The notes below the pieces were generated by a model. It was not told where the DNA came from. It ran no database searches and worked only from the letters and a program-made list of their open reading frames with translations. From a virus (lineage: Duplodnaviria; Heunggongvirae; Uroviricota; Caudoviricetes), in the IMG/VR virus record IMGVR_UViG_3300008114_000011: 64,000 nucleotides of DNA; one strand, 5' to 3'. Numbering within the stretch: the first letter of the stretch is position 1; the number at the start of each line of letters is the position of its first letter. Position numbers and translations under genes: made by a program. Shown here piece after piece: positions 5,141-26,134 of the stretch.

Positions 5141-5189
5141 AAAAGATATTCATCTATAAAGTGAGACATATTGATTCAAAAAAGGAAGA

Positions 5190-5432
5190 ATGAAAGTTAT
5201 TTGTATAAACAACCATATGGATCAGATTCCACTTACTATGGGAAAAGTCTATGATATCAAACAAAGATTTTATAGATATGATTTTTCAAATATGAAATCT
5301 TTGTTTGATATAGAAGGAAAAGAACATTTTTCTATAAAGAACAACAAAGGTAAGGAATCTTGGTATACTAGAGAAGAAGTAGTTCCACTAGAAGAGTGGA
5401 GAGAAATTAAACTTAATGATTTATTAAAGTAG
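5190..5432 (+). CDS. MKVICI-type family member (tail EWREIKLNDLLK)
   Basis: family motifs. Confidence 0.65.
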   Translation: MKVICINNHMDQIPLTMGKVYDIKQRFYRYDFSNMKSLFDIEGKEHFSIKNNKGKESWYTREEVVPLEEWREIKLNDLLK

Positions 5433-5434
5433 TT

Positions 5435-5626
5435 ATGGAAATAAAATTTATTGAAAGTCACTCCTTCTTAGGGGAAGAAATGACTATGATAGTTAATGGT
5501 AATCATCACCGTTTAGAAATGAATAGGATGACATATGCTCAACATGCTGTAAAGATATTGAAAGATATTTATGATATTGATTTCAAACTAGAAGATGTTA
5601 AGTTTGAATGGGATGGGTATTTATAA
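5435..5626 (+). CDS. hypothetical small protein
   Basis: ORF. Confidence 0.4.
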   Translation: MEIKFIESHSFLGEEMTMIVNGNHHRLEMNRMTYAQHAVKILKDIYDIDFKLEDVKFEWDGYL

Positions 5627-5659
5627 AAAATTTGTTAATCACTAAAAAGAATTAGGAAT

Positions 5660-5887
5660 ATGAGAACATATGAAGAGTTAGTACCAGAGTTTGCTAGTAA
5701 AGGTAGAGAAGAGAAACAGAAATGGATTGATGAACTACCCATAGAAGAAATTAAAGTTCTTATAAATGGATTGAAGGGTGTTGCTTACACTGGTATATGG
5801 GATTCTTGGATTGAGTATATGGAAATGATTATACTTATAAAGATTGAATTGGAAAGAGAAAGGAAACTAAATGAACTTGGTATATGA
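5660..5887 (+). CDS. small protein with RERKLNELGI tail
   Basis: family tail; ATGA coupling. Confidence 0.65.
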   Translation: MRTYEELVPEFASKGREEKQKWIDELPIEEIKVLINGLKGVAYTGIWDSWIEYMEMIILIKIELERERKLNELGI

Positions 5888-6231
5888 TGTTAGAAGACTT
5901 TTTAAAATTTGTAAAAGATATTGGATTCACTCTCACTATTATAAGAGATGAGTTTATCTACCTTTCTTATGGAAGATACACGATAACCATATACAATCCG
6001 GAAGAACATAGTGGATTCGAAAAAAGATATAGTCTGGGGTTTAAAAAAAATGAACACAACGTTACATATATCACAAGTGGTTCCGAAACAACTTTGAGTA
6101 GGACTACCATTTGGCTTGGCGAAAAAGTCACGTCTAACAAGATAAACTTCAAATTAGATGACTTTGAAGTACTTGAAAATGAATTCAAAGATATTATTAG
6201 AGAAAGGAAACTAAATGAACTTGGTATATGA
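5884..6231 (+). CDS. small protein with RERKLNELGI tail
   Basis: family tail. Confidence 0.65.
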   Translation: MMLEDFLKFVKDIGFTLTIIRDEFIYLSYGRYTITIYNPEEHSGFEKRYSLGFKKNEHNVTYITSGSETTLSRTTIWLGEKVTSNKINFKLDDFEVLENEFKDIIRERKLNELGI

Positions 6232-6470
6232 ATGAGTTTAGAATAGGAGATATCGTAGTATGTATAGAAGGTGGAACAAATATACCATTCTCAGAAGGGA
6301 GATATCTAACGGAAGGTAAACAATATGAGATACAATCACTTAAATATTTAAATGGTAGAACCTATATATTCATAATTAACGATAGAAGGGCCAGGGAGAT
6401 ATATGATGTGAAAAGGTTCCGAAATTTTCAGAGAGAAAGAGATAATAAACTAAATGAACTTGGTATATGA
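6228..6470 (+). CDS. SH3/KOW-like small protein (GDIVVCIEG) with RERDNKLNELGI tail
   Basis: family tail. Confidence 0.65.
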   Translation: MNEFRIGDIVVCIEGGTNIPFSEGRYLTEGKQYEIQSLKYLNGRTYIFIINDRRAREIYDVKRFRNFQRERDNKLNELGI

Positions 6471-6700
6471 AAGTAGGAGACTTAATAAAACCCATCAACG
6501 GATTTAAATTTGGTAAAGGTAAAATGGAAATAATACAGATAATACCAGATACTAATATATCATCCGGACGAATACTCGTGAAGTACCATAATAGATCTAC
6601 ATTAAATAGAGAACCTTTAATGTCCTGGGAAGCCGCAGATGAATTTGTAGTAGATGTGGAGAGAATGAGAGATGAGAAATTAAACGAATTAGGAATATGA
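6467..6700 (+). CDS. small protein (MKVGDLIKP) with RDEKLNELGI tail
   Basis: family tail. Confidence 0.65.
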   Translation: MKVGDLIKPINGFKFGKGKMEIIQIIPDTNISSGRILVKYHNRSTLNREPLMSWEAADEFVVDVERMRDEKLNELGI

Positions 6701-6948
6701 ACGTAGGAGATTGGGTTAAGATAAGAAACATGGTAATGAAACCACACATTAAAATGAGAATAATAGAAATGAGGAAATACGTCGATCCGAACACATCCAC
6801 CAACTTCGTTATCGATCAGGTTCGCGTGAGGTACTATGATAAATGGTGGGTCAACGGAAAGGATATGTCTGGCTGGGAAAATGCATACGAATACGAATTG
6901 GATGTGGAGACAATGAGAGAAGAGAAACTTAAAGAACTGGGTATATGA
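6697..6948 (+). CDS. small protein (MNVGDWVKI, DUF2158-like start) with REEKLKELGI tail
   Basis: family tail. Confidence 0.65.
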   Translation: MNVGDWVKIRNMVMKPHIKMRIIEMRKYVDPNTSTNFVIDQVRVRYYDKWWVNGKDMSGWENAYEYELDVETMREEKLKELGI

Positions 6949-7235
6949 AAGATTTAAGAATAAACCAATCAACATTCCCACTTAAAAATGGTGGCACTGG
7001 TGTAATAGCAATATTCATGTATGCCGGTGATGAAGATCCAAAACCTATATTAGAAGATGCTATAAGAAAATATACCGAAGGAACTGATAACTACGATACC
7101 TTTATTGATGCTCAAATGAATTGTCCATGGGTAAGAGTAATCATAAGTGGTATAAGTGAAATGGAACAAATGAATTTTAATGACTTTATAGTTCAATGGA
7201 GAAGAGATCAAAAACTAAATGAACTTGGAATATGA
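6945..7235 (+). CDS. small protein with RDQKLNELGI tail
   Basis: family tail. Confidence 0.65.
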   Translation: MKDLRINQSTFPLKNGGTGVIAIFMYAGDEDPKPILEDAIRKYTEGTDNYDTFIDAQMNCPWVRVIISGISEMEQMNFNDFIVQWRRDQKLNELGI

Positions 7236-7591
7236 TAAAAGTTAGGGCTATATTAAAAAGAACCGGTGAAGAATTTAACATAGATATAATAAGAACTTCT
7301 AAGGCAATGCCTGGTTCCATTACAATAAACGTTAGAGATTTAGAAAATAAACTAAATATTGTAAGTGTAAGATATGAAGAAGAAGAAAGACCAAAAGTTT
7401 GGAATGCCGACGGAACCCCTAAATATATTAGAATAGAAACTTTCCATGAGTTTAATAAATATTGGGATGTTATTTGGGTTGATGTTGATAGTTATGATAG
7501 ATTAGGATCTAATAAAGAAAGATATGAGATGATATATGGGAGCTTTAAAAGAATCATAAGAGATCAAAAGTTAAATGAGCTTGGTGTATGA
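7232..7591 (+). CDS. small protein with RDQKLNELGV tail
   Basis: family tail. Confidence 0.65.
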   Translation: MIKVRAILKRTGEEFNIDIIRTSKAMPGSITINVRDLENKLNIVSVRYEEEERPKVWNADGTPKYIRIETFHEFNKYWDVIWVDVDSYDRLGSNKERYEMIYGSFKRIIRDQKLNELGV

Positions 7592-7782
7592 ACGATTTAC
7601 CGAATGATTTCGAAGAACTTATGAAAATTCTCTCAAAAAAGAGAAGTTCCGAACGTGATAAGAATAGGATAAAAGAAATCGATGATTTGACGAAATCATT
7701 TAGAGAGATGAGGTCAAAGAACAATTCTTTAAAAAGAAAGGGGTTTATTGAGAAGATTTTCCTATATTTGTATAAACATTAA
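7588..7782 (+). CDS. hypothetical small basic protein
   Basis: ORF coupled by ATGA. Confidence 0.4.
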   Translation: MNDLPNDFEELMKILSKKRSSERDKNRIKEIDDLTKSFREMRSKNNSLKRKGFIEKIFLYLYKH

Positions 7783-7787
7783 AGGAT

Positions 7788-8084
7788 ATGAGTAATTCTA
7801 AGAAGAAATCTTTAGAAAAGATAAGATTAAAAAATAGATACTTATCTGATCTTCATAAAAAACAGAATGAAGATTTTATGAAAAGTATAGGTAAAAATAT
7901 AGGTGAGTTTGTAACTTGTAAAAAAAGTCTTAAAGCACCTGGATTACTTGGTGGTTTCACAAAAGGTATATCATATAAAATACTTGGCTTTTGTGGTGAA
8001 CATGTTTGTTTATTAGATGATGAGAATAAAGAATATGATTCCATGGATTTATCCTTAAATTATTATAAAGAGTATTTTTATTAA
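7788..8084 (+). CDS. hypothetical small protein
   Basis: ORF. Confidence 0.45.
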   Translation: MSNSKKKSLEKIRLKNRYLSDLHKKQNEDFMKSIGKNIGEFVTCKKSLKAPGLLGGFTKGISYKILGFCGEHVCLLDDENKEYDSMDLSLNYYKEYFY

Positions 8085-8096
8085 ACAAAGACTAAT

Positions 8097-8318
8097 ATGA
8101 TAACAGAATACTCAACAACCGAACCAATAGTTACTAAAAGAGATATTATTAGATTAACCGTAAATATCATTCCGGTTGACTTTTATGTAGATGAAATAAT
8201 AGATGGAATTCCACAAATAAGTATTCTATTACCTTATCTCAATAATGTTGAATATACAGAGTATAGATTAGGAGCTACTCAACCTTTAAGAACAGGACAA
8301 GAATATGAAAAACTATAA
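8097..8318 (+). CDS. hypothetical small protein
   Basis: ORF. Confidence 0.4.
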   Translation: MITEYSTTEPIVTKRDIIRLTVNIIPVDFYVDEIIDGIPQISILLPYLNNVEYTEYRLGATQPLRTGQEYEKL

Positions 8319-8344
8319 CACATAATTTACTTTTAATATGGTTT

Positions 8345-8569
8345 ATGAAAGAAGGTGATATTGTTTTTTGTATTGATTCATCTGATCATGGTAAGAAACA
8401 GAAATTAACTTATGGTAAAGGATATACAATTAAAAGAATTGATAATTATAAATTAAATTCAAGTATATCCATTAAAAATGATAGTGGTGTAATTGGTATT
8501 TATAATTTTAATAGATTTATAACTCTCAAAGAATGGAGAGATAAGAAACTAAAAGAACTTGGGTTATGA
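8345..8569 (+). CDS. family member (LTYGKGYTI core, EWRDKKLKELGL tail)
   Basis: family motifs. Confidence 0.7.
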   Translation: MKEGDIVFCIDSSDHGKKQKLTYGKGYTIKRIDNYKLNSSISIKNDSGVIGIYNFNRFITLKEWRDKKLKELGL

Positions 8570-8835
8570 AAATGGTTTGTATAACAAATAAAATAAAAGG
8601 AAAAAACTTATCCAACCAATTAGTTGTTGGTAAAGAGTATGATTTCAAAGTGCAAGACTATGGTAGACTAACAAGTAATAGATATTGCTCTGTTTATTAC
8701 TATTGTACAAATGTTAGAGATAAATCAAATGCTTGGATAAGATTTACCGGTTCTGGTGGAGTTGATTGTATTTGGAGATGGTTTTCAACTAAACAGAATA
8801 TTAGAGATCAAAAACTAAAAGAGATTGGGATATGA
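8566..8835 (+). CDS. MKMVCI-type member with RDQKLKEIGI tail
   Basis: family motifs. Confidence 0.65.
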   Translation: MKMVCITNKIKGKNLSNQLVVGKEYDFKVQDYGRLTSNRYCSVYYYCTNVRDKSNAWIRFTGSGGVDCIWRWFSTKQNIRDQKLKEIGI

Positions 8836-9032
8836 ATGTAGATGAAGATTTACTAAGATATTTTATTATACATTCACAAGGAATTAAACACGACGGTCCT
8901 TTATTTGATATCAGATTACTTGGTAATTCAATTATGTTTAGACTGAATCCTAATAGTGGTGCTTATGGTGTTGATTATAACTACTATAAGAGTTTATTAA
9001 GAGATAAGAAACTAAAAAATCTTGGGATATGA
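8832..9032 (+). CDS. small protein with RDKKLKNLGI tail; shares ~70-nt near-identical segment with 15463-15535
   Basis: family tail; PLFDIRLLGNSIMFRLNPNS segment duplicated elsewhere. Confidence 0.65.
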   Translation: MNVDEDLLRYFIIHSQGIKHDGPLFDIRLLGNSIMFRLNPNSGAYGVDYNYYKSLLRDKKLKNLGI

Positions 9033-9247
9033 AAGAGATAAAGATTGGTACCAGATACCTTTGGATTGAAGATGGATATATCATAAGAGGAATTATAAAG
9101 GATATAAAAGAGAAAAACATAATCATACACTGGTATGGTAAGACAAACTATTCATACAAAATAGATTATTTTATGAATGAAACCAGAATACAGATGGATA
9201 AAGAGTATTATAGAGATCAGAAACTAAAAGATCTTCTGGGTATATAA
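9029..9247 (+). CDS. small protein with RDQKLKDLLGI tail
   Basis: family tail. Confidence 0.65.
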   Translation: MKEIKIGTRYLWIEDGYIIRGIIKDIKEKNIIIHWYGKTNYSYKIDYFMNETRIQMDKEYYRDQKLKDLLGI

Positions 9248-9780: not shown

Positions 9781-9810
9781 AGTTTGAGTAGTCAATTAAC
9801 TACTCAAACT
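9781..9810. terminator. hairpin between convergent genes
   Basis: AGTTTGAGTAG-tcaattaa-CTACTCAAACT flanked by A-run / T-run. Confidence 0.45.
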
Positions 9811-10344
9811 AATATTATTTCCTACATAAAAAAGATAAGGAACACCACTTGGACTAGTTCCACTAACTGTCGGCGCACCATCCAAAGATGTCAATTTATT
9901 ATCTCTACAATCAAAAACATAAACCTTTTTTGGTGAACCTTCTAAAGATGTCAATTCATTTTTACTACAATCAAATCTTTCCACACCAATTTGTGGTGAT
10001 CCAACTAAAGTTGTTAATTGATTATTACTACAATTGAAATCCCCATTAATTTCTTTTGGAGCACCTTCTAAGGATGTTAATTGATTGTTACTACAATTGA
10101 AATCACCATTGACTTTATTAAACTTAACCGGTAACTTAGTTAGCTTTAAACCAGATAAATCAACATGACAATAAACATCAACAGATAAATCATCATTAAC
10201 TCTAAACCTTTTACCAATAGAGCTATCACCAATTAAATATAAATTACAAAGTCCAATCACTTTATTTTTAGCGGACTTTAACTTTTGTTCATCACTTTTT
10301 TCGAAGAAGTCAAAAAAACCTTCAAATGTTTTTAATTTTTTCAT
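9796..10344 (-). CDS. leucine-rich-repeat-like protein (~22-aa tandem repeats GDFNCSNNQLTSLEGAP) with MKKLKTFEGF N-terminus
   Basis: five tandem ~22-residue LRR-like units visible in protein and as ~66-nt DNA repeats. Confidence 0.65.
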   Translation of the reverse strand: MKKLKTFEGFFDFFEKSDEQKLKSAKNKVIGLCNLYLIGDSSIGKRFRVNDDLSVDVYCHVDLSGLKLTKLPVKFNKVNGDFNCSNNQLTSLEGAPKEINGDFNCSNNQLTTLVGSPQIGVERFDCSKNELTSLEGSPKKVYVFDCRDNKLTSLDGAPTVSGTSPSGVPYLFYVGNNISLSS

Positions 10345-12992: not shown

Positions 12993-13038
12993 TATGAGAG
13001 ATTTATAATAATTGGGTTTATAGTGTGTGATTTTTTAT

Positions 13039-13046
13039 TATATTTG
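13039..13046 (+). promoter_or_regulatory. Bacteroidetes-type -7 box TAnnTTTG
   Basis: TATATTTG upstream of 13063. Confidence 0.4.
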
Positions 13047-13062
13047 TTATAAAAGTATCTAA

Positions 13063-13542
13063 ATGAAAGTAATATTTTTAGACATAGATGGCGTTCTTAA
13101 CCTTTGTTACGAAGGTAGAGATGAATATGGATCACTATTTCATCCACACTTAGTAGACAATCTAAAACGATTGATTGATGAAACTGGTGCTAAGATTGTT
13201 ATAAGTAGTACTTGGCGTTTAAGTGGGTTAGAAATAATGAAAGAAATGTGGATTAAAAGAGGTTTACCAGGTGAGGTTATTGGTATAACTCCAAACTTTA
13301 TGAGACATTATGGCACAACTTTATGTAGAGGAAAAGAAATAGACGCTTATCTTAAAGAGAACAAAGATATTACGAGTTATTTAATCTTAGACGATGATAC
13401 AGATATGGAAGAACACCAACTACCTTATTTCGTAAAAACATCTGGTAATAAAGATCACGAAGATTGTGTTGATATTGGTTATGGTTTGACAAGAATCTGT
13501 ACGGATAAGGCAATAGAAATACTAAATAACTTAGAGTTATGA
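13063..13542 (+). CDS. HAD-superfamily phosphatase
   Basis: motif I FLDIDGVL near N-terminus, motif II VISSTWR; TAnnTTTG box at 13039. Confidence 0.65.
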   Translation: MKVIFLDIDGVLNLCYEGRDEYGSLFHPHLVDNLKRLIDETGAKIVISSTWRLSGLEIMKEMWIKRGLPGEVIGITPNFMRHYGTTLCRGKEIDAYLKENKDITSYLILDDDTDMEEHQLPYFVKTSGNKDHEDCVDIGYGLTRICTDKAIEILNNLEL

Positions 13543-13578
13543 ACTCGAATCTGATTTAAAACATTCTAAAGAAATTAA

Positions 13579-13956
13579 ATGTATAGAGAGTTCAAAAAAG
13601 GAGAAACATACCACGTAACATCAATCAGAGTTGATGGTACTGAAGGCTTTAGTATATTTAGACCCAACTCAACACAAAATGTATTCGACTCTATAATAGA
13701 TTGCCAAAGCTTCTCTAATATGAATAACCACTGGCACAAAAATAGTGTTGTATTCATTAGAAAATCAGATGGGGCCAACACTTACCCCTGGACATTAGGT
13801 GAAGGTACTTCTGTATGGAATAGACCAACTCGTCTTGCGACCGAACAAGAAAAACTAATATTAGATTCTGTACTACAAAGAGACGAGGCTCTAACAACTG
13901 CTGAAATTAGAGATATAAAGATTAATACCATTCTAAGTAAAAATGAAAAAAATTAA
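13579..13956 (+). CDS. hypothetical protein with decayed family tail (EIRDIKINTIL...)
   Basis: ORF. Confidence 0.45.
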   Translation: MYREFKKGETYHVTSIRVDGTEGFSIFRPNSTQNVFDSIIDCQSFSNMNNHWHKNSVVFIRKSDGANTYPWTLGEGTSVWNRPTRLATEQEKLILDSVLQRDEALTTAEIRDIKINTILSKNEKN

Positions 13957-14281
13957 AACCTGGTTCATTTATAGAACATATAAATTATTTTATAATGCAC
14001 CTGCTCCTAAATTTAAAATAGGTGACTCTGTTGTAACAGATGGTTATCTTAATACTAATGGTTATAAAATTGAAGGTGAAATAATCTCTATGAGATATAA
14101 TAAGCATGATAATATGTGGTTATGTGTAGTTAAGGATAATACACCATTTGAAAATAATCATACAACCAGTATGGGTTATGAATTTGACATTGATTTTCTA
14201 ACACTTACATTTCAAGAAGATCAATTACTACCTAGTAAATCTTATATTAGAAATAAAAAATTGGAAGAGTTAGGTATTTAA
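13943..14281 (+). CDS. small protein with RNKKLEELGI tail
   Basis: family tail. Confidence 0.6.
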   Translation: MKKIKTWFIYRTYKLFYNAPAPKFKIGDSVVTDGYLNTNGYKIEGEIISMRYNKHDNMWLCVVKDNTPFENNHTTSMGYEFDIDFLTLTFQEDQLLPSKSYIRNKKLEELGI

Positions 14282-14299
14282 ATAATAATAAATTAATAA

Positions 14300-14866
14300 A
14301 TGAAGTTTGAAACTGAACATTATAAATATTTTACATATTTATTGAATAAATATTTAATTTTAAAGGAAAAGTTCAAAGAAATATCTAATAGGGATTATAA
14401 ATTAAATATACTATTAAATCAAAAATATAGTGATATAGATGGAGATATTTCACAGTTAATTGATTTGATTGATAATTTATATGATGATTTGGATATAAAT
14501 AATTTGAATGAGAAAGTTTTATCTTGTATAGATTCACATATGGTAAAATTATCACACTTAATTAGTATTAATTATGGTAAGGGTGGCATTAGAACATCCT
14601 TGGAACGTGAATTGGATGGATATGCTGATAGAAATTTATGTGTATCTCCTGGTTTAACTGATATATCAAAATCAGGTGTCATACCAGCTAATTATTCAAA
14701 TGGAACTGGTGATGTACAAGAAATTATATATGCTACACATATATCAGGTGGTATGGATTCAACATTAAATATGCCTAATAGAATTGTCTTAGATAAATTA
14801 TCATATATTGATGGTGTCTTATTCAAATATAAAGGAATTTATAAATTAAGTAGTGATGGAAAATAA
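14300..14866 (+). CDS. hypothetical protein
   Basis: ORF. Confidence 0.5.
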   Translation: MKFETEHYKYFTYLLNKYLILKEKFKEISNRDYKLNILLNQKYSDIDGDISQLIDLIDNLYDDLDINNLNEKVLSCIDSHMVKLSHLISINYGKGGIRTSLERELDGYADRNLCVSPGLTDISKSGVIPANYSNGTGDVQEIIYATHISGGMDSTLNMPNRIVLDKLSYIDGVLFKYKGIYKLSSDGK

Positions 14867-15116
14867 ACTAAGTATTGGAGACTTCGTCAAATATAAATCT
14901 CATCCAAGTATATCACATTTCACTCGTAAATATCATAGAGGTCAGATAATCGATATCATAGAACCTTATACATGTCCTCATACCGGATCTCCTGAACCAG
15001 GTTCGATAACCATAGTAAGAGAAGATGGTTCTATAAACACAGACTATCATTATGTATTCGAATTAGATAGGGAGAAAATGAGGGATGATAAACTAAAGGA
15101 ATTAGGAATATGTTAA
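14853..15116 (+). CDS. small protein with RDDKLKELGI tail
   Basis: family tail. Confidence 0.65.
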   Translation: MMENKLSIGDFVKYKSHPSISHFTRKYHRGQIIDIIEPYTCPHTGSPEPGSITIVREDGSINTDYHYVFELDREKMRDDKLKELGIC

Positions 15117-15388
15117 AAGATATTATGACCGCAAAGCTGATTGCCAAGGAAGACTACTTCCTAACGCTCGACCTGGGATATAAAAATCCCACCCCCAACA
15201 AGGTGCTCACGAGAGGGAAGATCTACGAGTGCGAGGACATCTCCGGGACATCCCCTGATGATTTCCCTGATTATGACAAGTACTACAAGGTGATCGGCGA
15301 CGACGGAAACCGTCTGACCCTTGGCAAAGGAAGGTTCTTCTCCATAGAAGAGACGAGAGAAATGAAGCTGAAAGAAATTGGACTATGA
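15110..15388 (+). CDS. family member with REMKLKEIGL tail, strongly GC-rich codon usage
   Basis: family tail; GC-rich island. Confidence 0.65.
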   Translation: MLKDIMTAKLIAKEDYFLTLDLGYKNPTPNKVLTRGKIYECEDISGTSPDDFPDYDKYYKVIGDDGNRLTLGKGRFFSIEETREMKLKEIGL

Positions 15389-15872
15389 AACTCAAGATAG
15401 GAGATTGGGTCTTGCCGAAGAACCACATACGACAAAGCCCGCACATCAAAATGAAGGTCATAGACACGAGGGTCCTTTATTTGATATTAGATTAGTTGGT
15501 AATTCAATTATGTTTAGACTGAATCCTAATAGTAGAATTAACGATTTAGTTGAAACTATTGGATTCAAAATAAATAAACTATTAATTGATAACATTGCAT
15601 CAAAGAGTAGATTAGAAGTATTGGAATTCAGAAAAGGAAATATTTCAATCAAACTGGAAGCTACTAATTTTGGGAATAGATATGATTTTTTAATAAGTGA
15701 AGATGTTGAATACTCATATAATAGAAATGATATTGAAAAAAGAAGAGATCCAGGATTTAGATATACTGGATCCAGATTAGTCGGTACAGATACCAAAATC
15801 GATTATGGTTATATTAAATATGATTCATTTACATTAAATCTAAGTTCTTCACAAACTGAACCAGATTTTTAA
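15378..15872 (+). CDS. chimeric ORF containing PLFDIRLVGNSIMFRLNPNS segment; coding status uncertain
   Basis: ORF track; no family tail; mosaic. Confidence 0.3.
   Translation: MDYETQDRRLGLAEEPHTTKPAHQNEGHRHEGPLFDIRLVGNSIMFRLNPNSRINDLVETIGFKINKLLIDNIASKSRLEVLEFRKGNISIKLEATNFGNRYDFLISEDVEYSYNRNDIEKRRDPGFRYTGSRLVGTDTKIDYGYIKYDSFTLNLSSSQTEPDF
15385..15495 (+). pseudogene. truncated family member (MKLKIGDWVLPKNHIRQSPHIKMKVID..., homolog of 6697..6948 N-terminus)
   Basis: 36-codon ORF matching GDWV..KPHIKM+IIE then running out of frame into a segment copied from 8832..9032. Confidence 0.4.
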
Positions 15873-16003
15873 ACTATTATAGAAATAATAAAAAAAACCT
15901 TTAAAGGAGAATTGAGAGATATTAAAATCAATCAACTGATGAGTTAATTGAAAAAATTTATTATCTTTGAGTAAGTTTTGTTATTTAAATAAACATAAAC
16001 ATA

Positions 16004-16216
16004 ATGAAAAAGTTAATTAAAGAATATGAGAAGCTCAATCCTGGGTGTAAGATTAAGTACATACCTGAAAATTTTGCTTCTATTGAAATTTATAATAGTG
16101 GTGGATTAATTGCTATATTAGAGCCATTTGAATTGAGAGTGGAAGTGGAAAGAATGGTGAAAAATAAAGCTGAAGTTCGTGATAAAAAACTTAGTGAGTT
16201 ACTTGGAGAAAATTAA
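16004..16216 (+). CDS. small protein with RDKKLSELLGEN tail
   Basis: family tail variant. Confidence 0.55.
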   Translation: MKKLIKEYEKLNPGCKIKYIPENFASIEIYNSGGLIAILEPFELRVEVERMVKNKAEVRDKKLSELLGEN

Positions 16217-16308
16217 AACTAACGGTTATGGAGATATAAAGATTAACAACATTATAGAAACTAATTGAAAAAATTATTATCTTTGATGTGTAAATTAAAA
16301 CCACCAGA

Positions 16309-16638
16309 ATGGCATCATCCAGAAAACGAAGACTTAAAATTAAAAAAGGTGAAACTCATAAGAGTATAGAAATTAAATATTGTAAGCCAGAAATATCTAT
16401 ACAACATACTCGTGAATATTCAAAGATATTTGTTGAATGGGAAGATAAAAACGAAAAATCAGAAGATCTACGTAGAGAAGGTAAATACCATATAGTGTCA
16501 TATACTTATAGAAATAAACAAGAGTTGGATGATAATATCCAAAAGATCTCCGACTTAAAGAATATATTCCCATATCTAAGTATAAAATCATCACTTATTA
16601 AGTATTTGAAAACTCTAAGACCATTATCATATGTTTAA
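16309..16638 (+). CDS. hypothetical basic protein
   Basis: ORF. Confidence 0.4.
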   Translation: MASSRKRRLKIKKGETHKSIEIKYCKPEISIQHTREYSKIFVEWEDKNEKSEDLRREGKYHIVSYTYRNKQELDDNIQKISDLKNIFPYLSIKSSLIKYLKTLRPLSYV

Positions 16639-16870
16639 AAAGGGAGATATATTAATTGCTAAAACGAGCTCAATTTATAATAACCATAATAAATTGACTA
16701 TTGGTAAAGAATATGTAATAAAAAATACATATGGTGGTCTAAATATTTATGATGATACTTTAAAAGCTTGGTTCTTTTCTCCAGATGAATATGATATTCA
16801 TTACTATGGGAAATTCTTTTATACCAAAGAGGAGTTGAGAGATATGAGATTATCCACTTTACTTGAATAA
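16631..16870 (+). CDS. family member (LTIGKEYVI core, RDMRLSTLLE tail)
   Basis: family motifs. Confidence 0.55.
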   Translation: MFKKGDILIAKTSSIYNNHNKLTIGKEYVIKNTYGGLNIYDDTLKAWFFSPDEYDIHYYGKFFYTKEELRDMRLSTLLE

Positions 16871-16987
16871 AATTGATAATATTTTATTTATATATTTTTC
16901 TTTGAAAAGAATTTTGAAATGATAGATATTTCATTATTCTTCATCATTATTTTCTGGTATCATATTACTATTAAACTCCAACCTGCT

Positions 16988-17560
16988 TTATACACATACT
17001 TGAAGAAGTGAACCTTTATTTAATAATACTACTAATTTACCATCAATATTTAACCAATTATTCATGATGGTTTCTTTACTCCATTCCCACGCCTCCTTCT
17101 TGTATATATTCAATAAAAAACCATATCTCTCAAAAAACGACCAGATTGAAGTGCTTACGTAAATTCGTCTATCTCTACTTTTATCATAAAAAATTATATT
17201 GTCACCTGGATTATACCTATAAAGAACACATCCAGGGTGATCCTTACTCTCAACTTTTTCCATATCAGAAAAGTTTTTATTTAACCAATCAATACATACA
17301 TTCTCTATTGGTTTATCAGTAACTATAATTCCTTTACTTGTTTTATGAGAGTAATATCCTTCCTCTTCTATCCATGATTTTAAATGGTTTATTTTATCTT
17401 CACTAGGTTCTTCACTAAATTCAAATAAACGAAACATAGATGTATCTCCGTACTTCTCATCAAAGGTAACCTCATCAACCTCTATTGGATCTAAAGCAGA
17501 TGTTACAATCCATTTAGGATCTTCTCCATCGAAGTTTTCAAATAATTTTAAGTATTTCAT
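16988..17560 (-). CDS. hypothetical protein with MKYLKLFENF N-terminus
   Basis: ORF; shared N-terminal decapeptide. Confidence 0.55.
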   Translation of the reverse strand: MKYLKLFENFDGEDPKWIVTSALDPIEVDEVTFDEKYGDTSMFRLFEFSEEPSEDKINHLKSWIEEEGYYSHKTSKGIIVTDKPIENVCIDWLNKNFSDMEKVESKDHPGCVLYRYNPGDNIIFYDKSRDRRIYVSTSIWSFFERYGFLLNIYKKEAWEWSKETIMNNWLNIDGKLVVLLNKGSLLQVCV

Positions 17561-17915
17561 ATTTCTATATATTATTTATTAAATGATTCAGATGGATAGA
17601 TTCATTAAATTTTCTTATCTTCATAAAGTATATATTAACTTTGTTTATTCTAAAAAAATTCATATCTTTATATAAACTAAAAATAGAATTATGAAATTGT
17701 CTCCATTTACCTCATTAGTAATTAGTATGATATTCACCATCATTTGTACAATGGTCGTATTATCACATATACACCAAAACTTCCCTAATTGTAAATAATC
17801 ATGAAAGAAGGAGTACAACCATGGCATATCATTTTATCAGTAGTTCCACTGGTTATTACCGTCATAATTCTAATATTCATAGTACTCAAAAGAATATCAA
17901 AAGACTTAGATTAAA

Positions 17916-18098
17916 ATGAAAGGAATAAACAATATTAAATCAACCTCATCAGTAGATAAATTTACCGATGATGTATGTGTTTTTAGAGAACATAATGAAC
18001 TAAGACTTGAGTTCGATTGTCAAGAAACAATCATTCTCACATTAACAAAAGAACAATCAGAACAAATGATTCTTATGTTAGAGAAAATGTATAAATAA
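17916..18098 (+). CDS. hypothetical small protein
   Basis: ORF. Confidence 0.35.
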   Translation: MKGINNIKSTSSVDKFTDDVCVFREHNELRLEFDCQETIILTLTKEQSEQMILMLEKMYK

Positions 18099-20084: not shown

Positions 20085-20245
20085 AGATGAAAAAATTAAT
20101 TTATTCACCAGCCATTTCACTAATACTACATATTTTTATGTTTTATATGTTGTGGTTTTATTGGTCACTTCCAATGATTATAGTTTGGTCTATTTTTCTT
20201 GTAATTTACAATGAGAGAAGATACAATTGGAAAAAGTCCAGAAAA

Positions 20246-20271
20246 TACTAAAATCCGCACGTTTTTTAGTA
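20246..20271 (+). repeat. 26-nt GC-cored inverted-repeat element, orientation A (TACTAAAATCCGCACGTTTTTTAGTA)
   Basis: copy 1 of 8. Confidence 0.8.
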
Positions 20272-20364
20272 TTTTACTACGTAAAAATCTAAACTAAGTT
20301 TAGTATACCTGAGCTTGTGAAATCCAGATAAAATGCTTATCTTTGTTAATAATAATTTTATTAT

Positions 20365-20598
20365 ATGACAAAGTCCGAAATATTCAAATCTCAATTTCCC
20401 GATTTTTGTGGAACTCTTGGTTTCTATACTGAAGATTGCCAAATGGTAAACTTCATCGATGTTGAATCTGATATAGTTGAATTTGCAACATTAGTACCTA
20501 TGAGTTGTTCTAAAACCAAAGCACATTCAATTACATTATCCGAACTACTTGATGAAATGCCGGATAATGATTTTGAAAAATTCCTTGAAATTTTTTAA
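20365..20598 (+). CDS. hypothetical small protein
   Basis: ORF in repeat-delimited cassette. Confidence 0.4.
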   Translation: MTKSEIFKSQFPDFCGTLGFYTEDCQMVNFIDVESDIVEFATLVPMSCSKTKAHSITLSELLDEMPDNDFEKFLEIF

Positions 20599-20608
20599 AT
20601 TATAAGAT

Positions 20609-20965
20609 ATGGCATCTAAGAAAGCTAGAAAAAAGTTAAGACCCAAAGAAGATAAACAAAATTATCTAAAAGCTTATGTTTCATGGGACTTTGGGTTTAA
20701 ATCATTCAGAATATTAAATCGTGATAATTTTGATGTTATTTCAGAAAGAAAACTAATTAAAGATGGTAAACAATGCTGGTTTGATCTATCTAACGTTAAA
20801 GATGAAGTTGAAAGATATGCCACAGAAAGAGATTTATCTACATGGGGTTTAGGAGAATTATACCAATGTATCGATGATGAAGGGTTTAGTTATTCACATA
20901 AAGATCCTAACTTAGAAGGAGTTAAATCAAAGGCGAAACAAAAATCAATTATATTGATAGATTAA
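20609..20965 (+). CDS. hypothetical basic protein
   Basis: ORF. Confidence 0.45.
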   Translation: MASKKARKKLRPKEDKQNYLKAYVSWDFGFKSFRILNRDNFDVISERKLIKDGKQCWFDLSNVKDEVERYATERDLSTWGLGELYQCIDDEGFSYSHKDPNLEGVKSKAKQKSIILID

Positions 20966-20977
20966 AATATAATACAT

Positions 20978-21163
20978 ATGAAAGTAAGAAAAGGTGATAG
21001 TGTTAAGTTATTAAACGGCTTTAAAGAGACTATAAATGAAATTGATGTACATAAAGGTAAATTCAATATAAATGGTGAATATAATTATATGTCATTTATT
21101 ATTGCTGATATTATAGAATTAAATGGCGTAGATGTTAGATATAATACAAATTTGACTTTTTAA
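20978..21163 (+). CDS. hypothetical small protein
   Basis: ORF. Confidence 0.35.
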   Translation: MKVRKGDSVKLLNGFKETINEIDVHKGKFNINGEYNYMSFIIADIIELNGVDVRYNTNLTF

Positions 21164-21432
21164 AAAAATAAACTATGATAGCAATTATTCTTATACCAAT
21201 AATAATCACCAGTTTCCTTATCGGGAAATATACAGAGAGATTTCAATGGAATAAACTAATCAAATTAGGTAGAATTCCTAAACCAAATAACCCTAATCTA
21301 AATCATTCAGATTATTGGGCAAATAACTAGACTAAACAAACTAAAACATAAATATATGGAATACTTAGCTTATACATTTTTTGGAATGGTTATATACATT
21401 CTTGCTTATTTACTATTAAAACCTGAGAAATA

Positions 21433-21657
21433 ATGAATTTAGCAGACCAAATGAAAGCTGATATTAACTTTAATAAGATAATATCACAACTACAAAGAGA
21501 ATTCTCTTCCGGTAAATCTCAAGTTCTTATTGATAGCAACCTTTTAGAGAATAACATACAACGCCTTAGAGACGAAGGCTTCCATGTTGATACTGATGGT
21601 TTCCAATATAATGGTGGTGCCTACGTTTCATTCAAGAAGAAAAATCAATGGATGTAA
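21433..21657 (+). CDS. hypothetical small protein
   Basis: ORF. Confidence 0.4.
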   Translation: MNLADQMKADINFNKIISQLQREFSSGKSQVLIDSNLLENNIQRLRDEGFHVDTDGFQYNGGAYVSFKKKNQWM

Positions 21658-21664
21658 ATCAGAT

Positions 21665-21982
21665 ATGATTAAAAATCCAAAATTTACTCAGATTGGTGAA
21701 GAAGTTCATGATGATATAATTGAACTAATTCAGGATATTACTGTTTCTGGTATTCATTATTCTTCAAAGCCATATAGTAATTGTGAAATCAAAATAAAGA
21801 GTATTCTACTTACACTCGTATTTGGTAAATGGTCATATCTTATCAATTATGAAATAGGTGATAAAAATATGAATTTCTATACTTCTGAGAGACATAGTTC
21901 ATTAGATAATAAAATTGAAGAATATTTAGATAAACATATGACCCAAATAATAAGGGATGAGAAAATAAGAGAAATACTTTGA
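21665..21982 (+). CDS. small protein with RDEKIREIL tail variant (ORF-track start 21584 overlaps upstream gene)
   Basis: internal ATG. Confidence 0.45.
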   Translation: MIKNPKFTQIGEEVHDDIIELIQDITVSGIHYSSKPYSNCEIKIKSILLTLVFGKWSYLINYEIGDKNMNFYTSERHSSLDNKIEEYLDKHMTQIIRDEKIREIL

Positions 21983-22410
21983 AAATGGTCTTTACCATGT
22001 CAATGAAACAAAAAACAAACCAAATGATTAACACACGTATCTTCAATATAAAGTCATTTAAAGGGTTCACCTTAGGTAAAGAGTATCTTATATTAGATAA
22101 CTCACCAGGGACTAAGAAATCACACGAAATCATTGGCTCAAATGATCATGACTGGATAGCATTCCACTATCAATATGATGGATATGTAAGTCCATATGAG
22201 TATTTTGATTACCTATCTAAAAGGAACGCTATGCGTAAAAAGAAAATAGGCAAACAAAAGAATGAAAAGAAAGAAAGATTCTATATCATAGATGATTTTG
22301 GAAAAAGAAGATCATTCACAAGAAATGAATTAAATATGATATTCACTAATAATAGTGATGATATAACTTTAGAAATACGTAACGCTAAACTAAATACTTT
22401 AAATATATGA
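21979..22410 (+). CDS. small protein (FTLGKEYLIL core) with RNAKLNTLNI tail
   Basis: family motifs. Confidence 0.5.
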   Translation: MKMVFTMSMKQKTNQMINTRIFNIKSFKGFTLGKEYLILDNSPGTKKSHEIIGSNDHDWIAFHYQYDGYVSPYEYFDYLSKRNAMRKKKIGKQKNEKKERFYIIDDFGKRRSFTRNELNMIFTNNSDDITLEIRNAKLNTLNI

Positions 22411-22736
22411 TAGATTTATTAGAAATAATACTTATAGTAGGATTATTGGTATTCACATTTTTTCTTTTTACCACACTTTGGTTATTAATTAAATACCCAA
22501 AGTATGCAAATAAAATGATAAGTAAAATGATATGGGGTAAAGAGTGGGTTAAAAAGAATAAAAAACTAAATCCATAAGAAGTTGTTTTTATGAAATAAAA
22601 ACCCTACTCACTTGTGAGAGTCATATAAAATGACTATCTTTATAATGTCAATGAGAACATCGAAGACGGGTCCGTATAACTCCAATACGTAGAGGGTAAA
22701 CTCCAACCTGCTTATATAAATAATAAAACAAATAAA

Positions 22737-22762
22737 TACTAAAAAACGTGCGGATTTTAGTA
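22737..22762 (-). repeat. 26-nt element, orientation B (TACTAAAAAACGTGCGGATTTTAGTA)
   Basis: copy 2. Confidence 0.8.
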
Positions 22763-22780
22763 TTTTGTCTCATTTTTATT

Positions 22781-22788
22781 TATATTTG
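22781..22788 (+). promoter_or_regulatory. -7 box within conserved promoter TTATATTTGTATAAACTAAA (copy 1), 20 nt after a 26-nt repeat
   Basis: identical 20-mer at 23979-23998. Confidence 0.45.
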
Positions 22789-22834
22789 TATAAACTAAAT
22801 GTTATGGCTAAAACTAATACTAAATTAAATAGAA

Positions 22835-23041
22835 ATGGAAAAGTTTTTTAAAATACTAATAATAGTTTGTGCAATATTTATAGTTGTGAATAATTACCAA
22901 AATGGAATTGATAAAAATTACCCAATAATGCAATTAGGTGTAACATCTTTATGGATGTTGGTATCTTTTATTCTGTATAAAAGTATTAATAGTAAAGGTA
23001 AACTAAAAAGAAAACCTTTAAATTTTGAGGAAAAATACTAA
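22835..23041 (+). CDS. small membrane protein (2 TM)
   Basis: ORF flanked on both sides by the 26-nt repeat. Confidence 0.4.
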   Translation: MEKFFKILIIVCAIFIVVNNYQNGIDKNYPIMQLGVTSLWMLVSFILYKSINSKGKLKRKPLNFEEKY

Positions 23042-23061
23042 AAAACGTGCGGATTTTAGTA
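23036..23061 (-). repeat. 26-nt element, orientation B
   Basis: copy 3. Confidence 0.8.
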
Positions 23062-23107
23062 TAATCTAAACAAAGTTTAGTATATTTGTTCTACAAAACA
23101 AGTTCCT

Positions 23108-23386
23108 ATGAAAACTACCGAAGAATATAAAATGGATACTTTCCGTATGTGGGAAGGAGACTGCCACCCAGCTATATACAAGAAAAATAAAAAAGGTGAA
23201 TGGGATTACCTATTCCTCGTCAGTAGCAAAGAAGAGGGACAGGCATACCTGGAAGACCACTCCACCATAAAGAGACGATACATTCAGGACCGCGTACTAA
23301 TCTACACCCTTTTCGTGATACCAGCGTCAGCTCTGTTGTTATGGTCAATAATAGTAGGTATATTGGCAGTAACCGGGAATATGTAA
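23108..23386 (+). CDS. small membrane-anchored protein, GC-rich
   Basis: ORF; C-terminal TM. Confidence 0.45.
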   Translation: MKTTEEYKMDTFRMWEGDCHPAIYKKNKKGEWDYLFLVSSKEEGQAYLEDHSTIKRRYIQDRVLIYTLFVIPASALLLWSIIVGILAVTGNM

Positions 23387-23421
23387 TCAAGATTTAATGT
23401 AGGTAAAATTATTTTATTAAA

Positions 23422-23715
23422 ATGAAAACACATTTGACTAACCCCAAGACAAATAAAACATTAGTCTTGGACCACAATATAGAACAGACTGTTTTTGATT
23501 CAATATTTAATGATTCAAAAGAATTGTTTTATAATAAACAAGAAGAAATTGAAGAAATATATGGTGTTTCTTTTGATTTATGTGATTTGAAAATTGATGG
23601 TGAATTATTATATGGTTATTTTATCAACGATTTAACTTCAGATGAAATTTTAGAAGAAATATTTAACGATTTAAATAAATTCATCATAGATAATATTGGA
23701 GAAGTAATAAACTAA
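23422..23715 (+). CDS. hypothetical acidic protein
   Basis: ORF. Confidence 0.45.
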   Translation: MKTHLTNPKTNKTLVLDHNIEQTVFDSIFNDSKELFYNKQEEIEEIYGVSFDLCDLKIDGELLYGYFINDLTSDEILEEIFNDLNKFIIDNIGEVIN

Positions 23716-23728
23716 AAGAATTAGGAAT

Positions 23729-23932
23729 ATGGACCAACAAATGAATATTATATGTATAGCTGAAGGTACTTACAAAATAACTAAAGGCAAGACCTACCAA
23801 GTAAACGCACATTCAACTCACCAATATTGGATCATAGATGATGAAGGTCATATGCAATTGATAGGTAAAGACTTTTTCAGAACACAACAAGAAATAAGAG
23901 AAGAGAAGTTAAATGAACTTGGAATAATCTAA
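23729..23932 (+). CDS. family member (NIICIAEGTYKITKGKTYQV, REEKLNELGII)
   Basis: family motifs. Confidence 0.65.
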   Translation: MDQQMNIICIAEGTYKITKGKTYQVNAHSTHQYWIIDDEGHMQLIGKDFFRTQQEIREEKLNELGII

Positions 23933-23945
23933 ATTTTACTAATAA

Positions 23946-23971
23946 AATACTAAAATCCGCACGTTTTTTAG
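23946..23971 (+). repeat. 26-nt element, orientation A
   Basis: copy 4. Confidence 0.8.
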
Positions 23972-23980
23972 TATTTATTT

Positions 23981-23988
23981 CTTATATT
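23981..23988 (+). promoter_or_regulatory. -7 box within conserved promoter TTATATTTGTATAAACTAAA (copy 2)
   Basis: identical 20-mer at 22779-22798. Confidence 0.45.
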
Positions 23989-24012
23989 TGTATAAACTAA
24001 AAATAAACAACC

Positions 24013-24177
24013 ATGATAACCTTATTCAAAAAACTATTCAATAAAGATTGTAATCACAAGTGGGAACTTGTACAAAACGATAAAAAACTAAATATCAAAG
24101 TCCACCAATGTGACAATTGCAATAAAAGAAAATTAAATGTATCAACATCATTCGGTAATGAAGTAATTGAATTATAA
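24013..24177 (+). CDS. 54-aa zinc-ribbon-like protein (below ORF-track cutoff)
   Basis: ATG 24013 sits ~25 nt after TAnnTTTG box at 23981; CNHKW..HQCDNCNKRK. Confidence 0.3.
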   Translation: MITLFKKLFNKDCNHKWELVQNDKKLNIKVHQCDNCNKRKLNVSTSFGNEVIEL

Positions 24178-24500
24178 TCTTAAAGGTTAGATACAAACCT
24201 AATCAGCGTCCATCTCCATAATCCAATAGGAGGCAAATATATCTAACCTTCAATGAAACTAAGGCATTGAGCCAAGATGCTGTTAGTGTGCGTTATTTAT
24301 TAGTAGAATGGCTTGAGGGCAACCCTATTATCGAATGTTTAGAGTATTGGAGTAATCTACCTAAATACGAAGGTTTTAAAATAGAACACACTATTTGTCG
24401 TATTACTAATGCACACTAACGTATCGGGGCTTTGCGTAGTAGTCCTTAGTAGAAACTTAAAATTAACCACGACACTTGATAGGGCTATTACACAAAGCCC

Positions 24501-24731
24501 TTGTTATGTGCCGTTAAATTTCACAAAATGAGATACGAAGAAAAAATTATCGAACACACAGAAGAAGAAACAGACTTCTTACCACTCAAAGAAGCAATAG
24601 TGAATATCGAATTTTCTCAAGGTGACTTGATTGAAATGAGAGATATTTTAAGACAATTTAAGCCTAATTTATGGGCAAAAGGATTGTTGTCAGATATAGA
24701 AGCCACACTCGAAAAGGTGTCGGTGTATTAA
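24501..24731 (+). CDS. hypothetical small protein
   Basis: ORF between two GC-richer non-coding segments. Confidence 0.35.
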   Translation: MLCAVKFHKMRYEEKIIEHTEEETDFLPLKEAIVNIEFSQGDLIEMRDILRQFKPNLWAKGLLSDIEATLEKVSVY

Positions 24732-24871
24732 TGGCCCGTTTTGCGGTTTTGTGTTAGGCTACGAAGCCTTGGCATTGAGCGGTCGAGCAGCTTGCACAAA
24801 ACCGCTGTTATACGCTGGCACGGGTAATTTAGTAGGAACTTAATTTGAAACACAAATAAAAATCAAAAGCA

Positions 24872-25174
24872 ATGGCAACAGTAATTTATGAAATACCAAA
24901 CTCCGTAAAGGAAATGTTTGAACAAGGCGAAAATAGTTATCGCATTATTGACTATTCAATACAGGAAATGGATAACATCCAAAGTATGCAACATTTCCTT
25001 GACTGTATAGGTGCAACAACGGATAATATCGAAACAGATGATGGAACGCAAGTAGTAGTAATTCATCCCGATTTTGACCACAAACTTGTAATTGATAGTG
25101 GTGGGTTGGGTGATTTTTATTCTCACGGTTATGACGTAACTCTCTATTCGGAAACGGTCAGTAGTGCTTGTTAA
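24872..25174 (+). CDS. hypothetical acidic protein
   Basis: ORF. Confidence 0.4.
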   Translation: MATVIYEIPNSVKEMFEQGENSYRIIDYSIQEMDNIQSMQHFLDCIGATTDNIETDDGTQVVVIHPDFDHKLVIDSGGLGDFYSHGYDVTLYSETVSSAC

Positions 25175-25188
25175 ATATAAAAAACATC

Positions 25189-25398
25189 ATGAAAGATTAC
25201 AAGAAAGGTGATGAATTCACATCTAAAAACTCAGGGACTATTTCAACAATAATAGAGATTGCATCGGAAGATGTCCTAAACTGGTACGGATTAGAAGGTC
25301 CAGCGTTCTGGATAAATGAGAATGGAAGCTCTCAATTAAGACTTTGTACCATAGAAGGCCTCAAAGAACTATTCATTATACCCGAAGAGAAAAAATAG
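25189..25398 (+). CDS. hypothetical small protein
   Basis: ORF (probable start MKDYKKGDEF). Confidence 0.4.
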   Translation: MKDYKKGDEFTSKNSGTISTIIEIASEDVLNWYGLEGPAFWINENGSSQLRLCTIEGLKELFIIPEEKK

Positions 25399-25474
25399 GT
25401 TTCTGACTTCGTGGAAAAATAGTGAACCTTCGTTAACTCAGGTACTAAACTTCGTTTAGAGTTTCTAAAGAAAC

Positions 25475-25500
25475 TACTAAAATCCGTGCGGATTTTAGTA
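25475..25500 (+). repeat. 26-nt element variant (TACTAAAATCCGTGCGGATTTTAGTA, near-perfect palindrome)
   Basis: copy 5. Confidence 0.7.
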
Positions 25501-25584
25501 TCATTAGCTTGTGATATACAGATAAAATCATTATCTTTATACTCACAGAGTGAGAGTATAAAATACTAAAACAAAATAAGAGAT

Positions 25585-26004
25585 ATGAACCTTGACACTA
25601 TAATAAAATCACAAATAATCGGATTAGAAATCGGAATAATAAACGTTATCAAAACAACCGAGTTTAACGTACACGCAATCGCAAACGAATTATCCGATAT
25701 ATTAGGTAAAGAAAATATCCAAATATTCAAAGTTGGTACCCACACAGGTATATCAATACCAGAAATCGTTAAACAATTCGATAACTTCGACTACTCTAAA
25801 CCAATCATAATCGTTACAAACAAAGACGCAATCTATAAACATATCATACCAAGAAACGGTAAAGTAATTCAATCTAAATGCCCAAAAACAGGCTTCCTAA
25901 TCCTAAACGATGTTAAATGGAAATTCACACGTTTCCAATCTACTTTCGAAGGAACAATAACTCAACTAAGAAGAGATTACCAATTAGAAACACTAATAAA
26001 TTAA
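25585..26004 (+). CDS. hypothetical protein with RRDYQLETLIN tail variant
   Basis: ORF. Confidence 0.5.
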   Translation: MNLDTIIKSQIIGLEIGIINVIKTTEFNVHAIANELSDILGKENIQIFKVGTHTGISIPEIVKQFDNFDYSKPIIIVTNKDAIYKHIIPRNGKVIQSKCPKTGFLILNDVKWKFTRFQSTFEGTITQLRRDYQLETLIN

Positions 26005-26019
26005 AAAATAGGTTAGGTG

Positions 26020-26093: not shown

Positions 26094-26108
26094 AAACTTC
26101 AGAGAAGA

Positions 26109-26134
26109 TACTAAAATCCGCACGTTTTTTAGTA
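26109..26134 (+). repeat. 26-nt element, orientation A
   Basis: copy 6, directly after the tRNA-like element. Confidence 0.8.

Follow-up and report, generated by a model that had tools for sequence, protein, structure and literature searches.

By the window we mean the whole 64,000-nt stretch of DNA that was analysed, which has a GC content of 28.5%. Between positions 15100 and 15475 the GC profile stands at 44-53%, and from about 15475 it goes down to 22-30%. Across this step lie two open reading frames (ORFs), one of 36 aa in frame 1 (15385-15495) and one of 164 codons in frame 3 (15378-15872). The first-pass annotation had described the shorter one as a truncated gene of a small-gene family, fused to a segment copied from gene 8832-9032. 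The similarity is there: when 15380-15560 is searched against the window by BLASTN, the only other match is 8885-8957, which agrees with 15461-15533 at 69 of 73 nt (94.5%, E 2.7e-28), and a third copy is absent. A repeat search extends the shared stretch to 80 nt at 91% (8878-8957 and 15454-15533). The frames differ as had been stated: the shared stretch reads HEGPLFDIRLVGNSIMFRLNPNS only in frame 3, in ORF 15378-15872, which is the frame used by gene 8832-9032, and is out of frame with the ATG at 15385. The N-terminus of the shorter ORF does match gene 6697-6948 (tblastn, 44% over 27 aa, E 1.7e-4), and the ORF is indeed a truncated family gene, holding 29 of the 86 codons of a gene that is whole in contigs L010 and L012. 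The features of the locus and their counterparts elsewhere in the window are collected in Table 1.

Table 1. Segments of the composite locus and related features in the window.
Feature	Position	Strand	Basis or remark
5' end of the resident gene, start codon included (five codons, MLKDI)	15110..15125	+	identical to empty-site contigs up to 15125
Composite insertion	15126..15531	+	406 nt, absent from nine related contigs
Imported 87-aa small-family gene, MTAKLIAKEDYF...REMKLKEIGL	15125..15388	+	homologs P0003-P0005
Stump of imported 86-aa family gene, 29 codons (MKLKIGDWVLPKNHIRQSPHIKMKVIDTR)	15385..15471	+	cut at joint 2
Microhomology at joint 2, ACACGAGG	15464..15471	+	four-way display; imported gene and L015/L016 allele
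8832-type patch, 26% GC	15472..15533	+	codons 23-42 of 8832-type gene; blastn E 2.7e-28
Remainder of the resident 147-aa gene	15532..15872	+	alignment with L001-L003, L017-L022 and six intact protein alleles
Orphaned 3' end of the resident gene (TIIEIIKKTFKGELRDIKINQLMS*)	15873..15947	+	still in frame past the premature stop
Full-length resident homolog of the truncated 15385 gene, 83 aa	6697..6948	+	71% aa identity to L010 gene
Resident match, the window's own allele of the patch source, in 66-aa gene 8832-9032	8885..8957	+	blastn, repeat search

Nine related contigs in two clades (L001-L003 and L017-L022) are collinear with the window on both sides of the locus and lack the sequence in between: position 1866 of L001 aligns to window 15125 and also to window 15531, leaving 406 extra bases in the window. 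All nine read GATATTA|GTAGAATT at the empty site (...ATGTTAAAAGATATTA|GTAGAATTAACG...; across the joint, GATATTAGTAGAATT) and encode a protein of 147 aa, MLKDIS|RINDL...RDIKINQLMS, in whose codon 6 the insertion falls. As 406 equals 3n+1, the remainder of the resident gene is shifted from frame 2 to frame 3. The window flanks are 100% (left, over 270 nt) and 98.8% (right, over about 690 nt) identical to L001; against the L017 clade the values are 88.9% and 96.9%, with the same empty joint as in L001.

At the protein level, the database relatives of the frame-3 ORF are of two kinds only: the ORF itself (P0001/P0017, 164 aa) and the 147-aa P0002, which starts MLKDIS|RINDLVETIGFK..., passes the window's stop and ends ...PDFETIIEIIKKTFKGELRDIKINQLMS. 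The 147-aa allele of L017-L022 is P0012. An exhaustive search added P0018, a protein of 138 aa with a short N-terminus (MIDNIN...) and the C-terminus ...FRDIKLNTLLL, which is 36% identical to the 147-aa form and aligns with it end to end. Six distinct intact alleles stand against two interrupted ones, and the only difference between the latter two is whether the TTG start is given as M or L. The insertion is very probably derived, because the empty joint is found in both clades, P0018 fits the 147-aa form and the intact alleles are six against two. A representative search with the 147-aa protein returned only P0001, P0018 and one weak match, an IMG/VR scan for relatives of the locus ORF returned none, and the AlphaFold model of the protein has a pLDDT of 57.

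One further arrangement of this region is seen in strain L015, which is without window 15113-16596, so that the 147-aa gene and two genes after it are missing; the joint there (L015 9581-9600) lies directly after a conserved junction, with a short TGAAA-type overlap.

The larger part of the insertion, 346 nt at 15126-15471, has 48.6% GC in a genome of 28.5% and is 96.5% identical to L010-L012, three short contigs (0.6-1.1 kb) of 45-50% GC. Against positions 186-545 of L010, window 15124-15471 is identical at 335 of 347 positions, with one 12-nt in-frame gap. This segment contains an 87-aa gene in full and the next gene as far as its codon 29; the three contigs carry both genes whole. There, behind the homolog of the 87-aa gene, the second gene is an intact one of 86 aa, MKLKIGDWVLPKNHIRQSPHIKMKVIDTR-KYIDPNTSTNFVIDQVRVRYYDK...DEKLKEIGI, and in L010 and L012 it continues beyond the stump as ...TRKYIDPNTSTNFVIDQVRVRYYDK...KLKEIGI. 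The homology of the stump with L010 ends exactly after ACACGAGG; past that point the ORF from 15385 runs through seven out-of-frame codons to a TAG at 15493-15495. The 15385 gene is thus not a decayed resident copy: it came in with the whole 87-aa gene that precedes it, on one fragment of 346 nt with 48.6% GC.

Gene 6697-6948, to which the full-length L010 gene is 71% identical at the amino-acid level, has an uneven similarity of its own. Compared with L010 459-719, its nucleotide identity steps from 65% (51/78) to 82% (143/174) and its GC content from 31% to 43%. Both change at GAGG|AAATAC, the codon where the 15385 stump is cut; the step could be a coincidence, a domain boundary or a recurrent breakpoint.

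Two starts are open to the imported 87-aa gene: its own ATG at 15125, and the resident ATG captured at 15110, which gives 92 aa. Homologs of this 92-aa gene (15110-15388), P0003-P0005 among them, all begin MT/SAKLIAK (at greater length, MT/SAKLIAKEDYF); the MLKDI codons therefore belong to the resident gene and not to the imported one. These codons are AT-rich, unlike the sequence downstream, and are now in frame with the imported gene. Since the resident ATG overlaps the stop of the upstream gene and the 87-aa gene sits in frame behind it, we infer that the newcomer takes over the expression slot of the resident start.

As to the donor, the GC-rich contigs are only 96.5% identical and short, so that the true donor genome is unsampled. 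The gene also circulates in AT-rich strains, L015 carrying it at 94.7% identity, and the immediate donor therefore need not have been a GC-rich genome. Scans of IMG/VR and of species genomes found no relatives of the imported gene. In L015 (29% GC overall) the gene, here a 91-aa MTAKLIAK gene of 47% GC at positions 315-590, is intact at another locus, between homologs of window 5884-6231 and 6228-6470 and with a conserved junction on either side; the MTAKLIAK gene cassette is known from at least three contexts. The window has a second GC-rich island at 4881-5140 (mean 45%, peak 54%): it holds gene 4919-5140 (73 aa, with the family tail), has a conserved junction on either side, and is present in the AT-rich strains L024 and L025 as well.

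The remainder of the insertion is an AT-rich patch from a gene of the 8832 type. Gene 8832-9032 was found with the matching stretch in all six of its alleles, one of which, the 66-aa protein P0009 of L015 and L016, reads HEGPLFDIRLVGNS, exactly as the patch does. Within 15472-15533 the patch is 1 nt off this allele and 3 nt off the window's own copy, which is consequently not its best source. The extent of the copied segment as first described needs trimming: 15472-15531 is 8832-derived (plus the TAGT common with the next segment), whereas 15461-15471 (..GACACGAGG) belongs to the truncated family gene, because the full-length gene in L010-L012 shows these very bases. Downstream of the part that matches the patch, the 8832 tail reads AATAGTGGTKCTTATGG. 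The IMG/VR scan found no relative of the patch, and the metagenome scan for its core recovered only another ordinary 8832 locus, L023. That contig differs from the window elsewhere: its positions 1000-1772, about 770 nt, stand in place of about 170 nt at window 7589-7759, between flanks that are 98-99% identical.

All homologies end abruptly. Similarity to the resident gene runs to 15125 and is taken up again from 15527-15532; that to L010 covers 15124-15471, and that to 8832 runs from 15461/15464 to 15533. At joint 1, the resident GATATTA|GTAG and the donor GGAATA|TGACC have the bases TA in common (15124-15125), a microhomology of 2 nt that is little above chance. At joint 2 (spanning sequence GACACGAGGGTCCTTTATT), the donor GACACGAGG|AAATAC and the L015-type allele AACACGAGG|GTCC share the 8 nt ACACGAGG, where the window's own 8832 copy reads ACACGACG. 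At joint 3, the 8832-type CCTAATAGT|GG and the resident GATATTAGT|AGA share TAGT (15530-15533; TA.TAGT with one mismatch). Around these few bases the flanks are unrelated, and no similarity of the 15385 gene or the 147-aa gene to gene 8832 was found outside the patch. With only 2, 8 and 4 nt in common, the joints point to microhomology-mediated joining or template switching and not to homologous exchange between paralogs; the locus thus loses the standing it had been given as direct evidence that family members recombine with each other.

No mobile-element signature was detected at the insert, which shows no duplication beyond TA and no convincing terminal repeat and encodes only small genes. 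A transposon was rejected as a candidate, target-site duplication, terminal inverted repeats and a recombinase all being absent. Promoter-like and terminator-like sites at the insert do not exceed the shuffled expectation, and 15100-15560 holds no member of a repeat family. An imperfect inverted repeat (15101-15122 and 15509-15530, 16/22, with a perfect ATTAGGA/TCCTAAT core) links the resident left side with the end of the patch. It is probably due to chance, and could have aided a strand switch.

Altogether, we regard it as highly probable that the 406 nt of 15126-15531 are a derived insertion of composite make-up, which interrupts the resident 147-aa gene in codon 6 and gives a locus of four segments. 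The first would be the resident gene up to ...GATATTA; the second, a 346-nt fragment of a GC-richer relative, with the whole 87-aa gene and 29 codons of the next; the third, a piece of roughly 60 nt from an 8832-type gene whose allele resembled that of strain L015; and the fourth, the resident gene again, from GTAGAATT on. The joints would have formed by microhomology-mediated illegitimate recombination, either in one replicative template switch during a mixed infection, the 8832 piece being templated filler, or in two successive illegitimate events. No intermediates that would separate a one-step from a two-step origin were found in IMG/VR and metagenome scans with joint 2 and the patch core. 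We put forward only tentatively, and with more doubt than belief, that the scar goes back to one copy-choice event during mixed infection, a growing strand having moved, at a few matching bases each time, from the resident genome to a co-infecting relative whose base composition differs, on to an 8832-type gene and back. Were it so, the arrays of about 40 RDxKLxELGI-tail genes would be a hotspot of template switching between co-infecting large phages, where genes are both built and destroyed and all parental sequences can be recovered from metagenomes.

The consequences for the resident gene are severe. Its remainder has no start of its own: it begins with GT, the last two bases of codon 6, and codon 7 (RINDL...) follows from 15534. 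A 12-nt in-frame deletion (HLET) between 15740 and 15741 is found in this lineage only, as is the premature TAA at 15870-15872, which is GAA in all intact alleles and cuts off 25 conserved C-terminal residues. Three more amino-acid changes, at residues invariant in the intact alleles, are unique to the window. In P0002 and P0012-P0016 the reading frame continues through the part that is here the orphaned 3' end (15873..15947), a stretch that P0018 also conserves. With the start lost, four codons deleted and a nonsense codon gained, the resident gene is, judging by its sequence, most likely a pseudogene. The locus had been called chimeric or pseudogenised. It is chimeric and very probably dead; what that description overlooked is a third partner, the resident 147-aa gene, intact in nine contigs. 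In annotation, ORFs 15378-15872 and 15385-15495 should not count as genes.

Several other origins were weighed. The near-identity of the two stretches invites the reading that a resident 15385 paralog fell into decay and exchanged sequence with the window's gene 8832-9032, through homologous recombination or gene conversion; both genes belong to small-gene arrays with the RDxKLxELGI tail, and exchange at the conserved junction does seem to happen elsewhere, as in the L015 cassette. However, the stump and the gene before it, with 48.6% GC and 96.5% identity to foreign contigs, are not a resident paralog. Outside the patch the partners have only 8 nt and 4 nt in common, the patch is far from the conserved family tail, and the foreign allele fits it better than the window's copy does. 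Such an exchange is largely refuted and, in our estimate, very improbable. We think it just as improbable that the window form is ancestral and that the 147-aa form goes back to a loss of 15126-15531 by deletion at two short repeats, TATTA and TAATA. Repeats of 2-5 nt would yield exactly the in-frame joint observed, but the ends of the deletion must then coincide with the start of the foreign homology on the left and the end of the 8832 homology on the right. The same joint occurs in two clades, one of them an outgroup to the window plus L001, and the deletion must have occurred identically in both. The short N-terminus and long C-terminus of P0018, the AT-rich MLKDI codons and the homologs of the 87-aa gene, which start at MTAK, argue against it as well.

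A misassembly of metagenomic reads at the 73-nt repeat can be dismissed almost entirely. Repeats of this length can misjoin contigs, and a related contig, L006, looks chimeric at another place; a misjoin, however, would run on into the neighbourhood of 8832 and not return to the resident gene after 60 nt. The insertion structure is also identical in six independent assemblies (L004-L009; ENA, NCBI and JGI; different samples), which are 99.9-100% identical to the window, carry all three joints and agree at 100% over the patch region; it is therefore not an assembly artefact. That the chimera is a working new gene seems unlikely, though less so than the other alternatives. The expressed form could be ORF 15378-15872, a product from ATG 15510, or a fusion made by frameshifting from ATG 15385. 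In favour of this, patch and resident remainder share one frame, frame 3 stays open over 164 codons, the ORF was called by gene callers of three sources, and the arrangement recurs unchanged in the six assemblies. Yet the 164-aa ORF has no start other than a TTG that lies within the preceding gene, and from there some 30 codons run through imported sequence in the wrong frame, first the end of the 87-aa gene and then the stump; 25 C-terminal residues conserved even in P0018 are lost, and four invariant residues are deleted. A programmed -1 frameshift was rejected: 15385-15495 has no slippery heptamer of the type X XXY YYZ, and in L010 and L012 the upstream frame continues as an ordinary gene. 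From the reading frame it is nonetheless possible that translation restarts at ATG 15510, giving a 120-aa product from open frame 3.

The surroundings of the composite insertion are those of a large phage: a contig of 171,766 nt carries P0017, and among phages it comes closest to uncultured genomes of 630-735 kb and to Cellulophaga phages. A phage nucleotide search with 13000-18000 gave no match. The host of this AT-rich phage is probably one of the Bacteroidota, as is suggested by a type IX secretion sorting domain in one protein (56025-57749). This protein lies in a region of notable genes (46405-62276), which also encodes a NUMOD3 protein (46405-47193), an HNH endonuclease (48863-49846), a nicotinamide phosphoribosyltransferase (49882-51462) and two neighbouring ORFs on the minus strand (59137-61158) that have matches to intein splicing and LAGLIDADG.

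About 40 small ORFs on the plus strand of window 36-46366 (for example, in 4698-9247 and 44407-46366) have unrelated bodies and the common tail R[DE]xKLxELGI, often followed by an ATGA stop/start overlap; a 35-nt junction is present in 20 copies. The tail seems to be conserved at the protein level, because codon choice within it varies. It matches no Pfam family, and the literature yielded chance matches only. The 147-aa gene and its distant homolog P0018 also end in a version of this tail. Searches of Pfam and PHROGs with the genes involved in the locus gave no match, apart from weak phrog_4927 for some of the small family members.

Other repeats and rearrangements are scattered through the window. 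A 36-nt repeat that includes a perfect stem-loop of the type ATACTAAAA-TCCGCACG-TTTTTAGTAT is present in seven copies at 20240-26378 and also in L015 at about 9840-9890; it lies between genes, with the loop in either orientation, and recalls the cassettes of promoter and terminator known from T4-type phages. At 31646-32242 a gene of some 300 nt is tandemly duplicated (copies 76-91% identical). On the minus strand, 9796-10344 encodes a leucine-rich-repeat protein with four DNA-level repeats of about 62 nt, and several minus-strand genes nearby have an N-terminus of the type MK.LKTFE.F. in common. Finally, L006 1-982 is joined to window 14626, in the middle of a 188-aa gene (14300-14866). These ~980 nt are GC-richer, without a match in the window, and contain a 164-aa ORF that by eye resembles the C-terminus of a DNA polymerase; the join is either a real recombinant or an assembly chimera.

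Natural phage recombination joints are usually inferred from two genomes, with no knowledge of the parents. For this locus, relatives supply the empty site, the original setting of the imported fragment and the origin of the filler, and thus the order of the segments, the sequences of the joints and the later decay of the gene can be read directly. The case shows a large AT-rich phage taking up a gene from a relative whose GC content is very different; the gene captures a resident start, and two dead fragments are left behind. The insertion leaves the current understanding of phage mosaicism unchanged; its value is in the completeness of the reconstruction, and the scar at 15126-15531 is documented unusually well for what is an ordinary process in phage evolution.

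Four known systems offer themselves for comparison. Morons are extra genes between phage genes, with a promoter and terminator of their own. Like a moron, the segment brings an extra gene of deviant GC content that one strain has and close relatives lack; unlike a moron, it was inserted inside a gene, at codon 6, and uses the start context of the gene it destroyed. A moron was rejected, as the insertion has no promoter or terminator signals of its own and is not intergenic. Templated filler insertions at repair joints are known from microhomology-mediated break-induced replication and from fork stalling and template switching. In their manner, a short copy of a locus 6.5 kb away stands between unrelated partners, with microhomology on either side. 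In contrast to them, the mechanism is here a proposal: two ordinary illegitimate events could yield the same product, and no phage enzyme is implicated.

In T4-type phages, promoter/stem-loop (PeSL) cassettes mediate modular shuffling within the hyperplastic regions (PMC2839356, PMC4122927). The likeness is in the small ORFan indels and replacements between very close relatives in a plastic region; moreover, in this phage group, too, short conserved gene-border sequences seem to guide other exchanges, such as that of the L015 cassette. Unlike in PeSL shuffling, no such motif stands at the three joints, and the conserved element here is a coding junction (RDxKLxELGI, then ATGA) that this event did not use. 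PeSL-type shuffling was rejected because a conserved promoter/stem-loop motif is absent from the module borders.

Phage mosaicism with novel joints inside genes has been discussed for lambdoid phages and mycobacteriophages. With such joints the locus shares abrupt switches of parent, overlaps of a few bases and a position inside a coding region, as well as a product that is non-functional or awkward and is revealed only by comparison with relatives. It differs from them in having three sources within 406 nt, all recovered from metagenomes, in having a short templated patch in the middle, and in its setting, a large AT-rich phage with arrays of tail-tagged small genes. Illegitimate and homeologous recombination have both been weighed as causes of phage mosaicism (PMC2327257); the present locus belongs with the cases of mosaicism that illegitimate recombination brings about, and it lies in a hyperplastic region of small ORFans.
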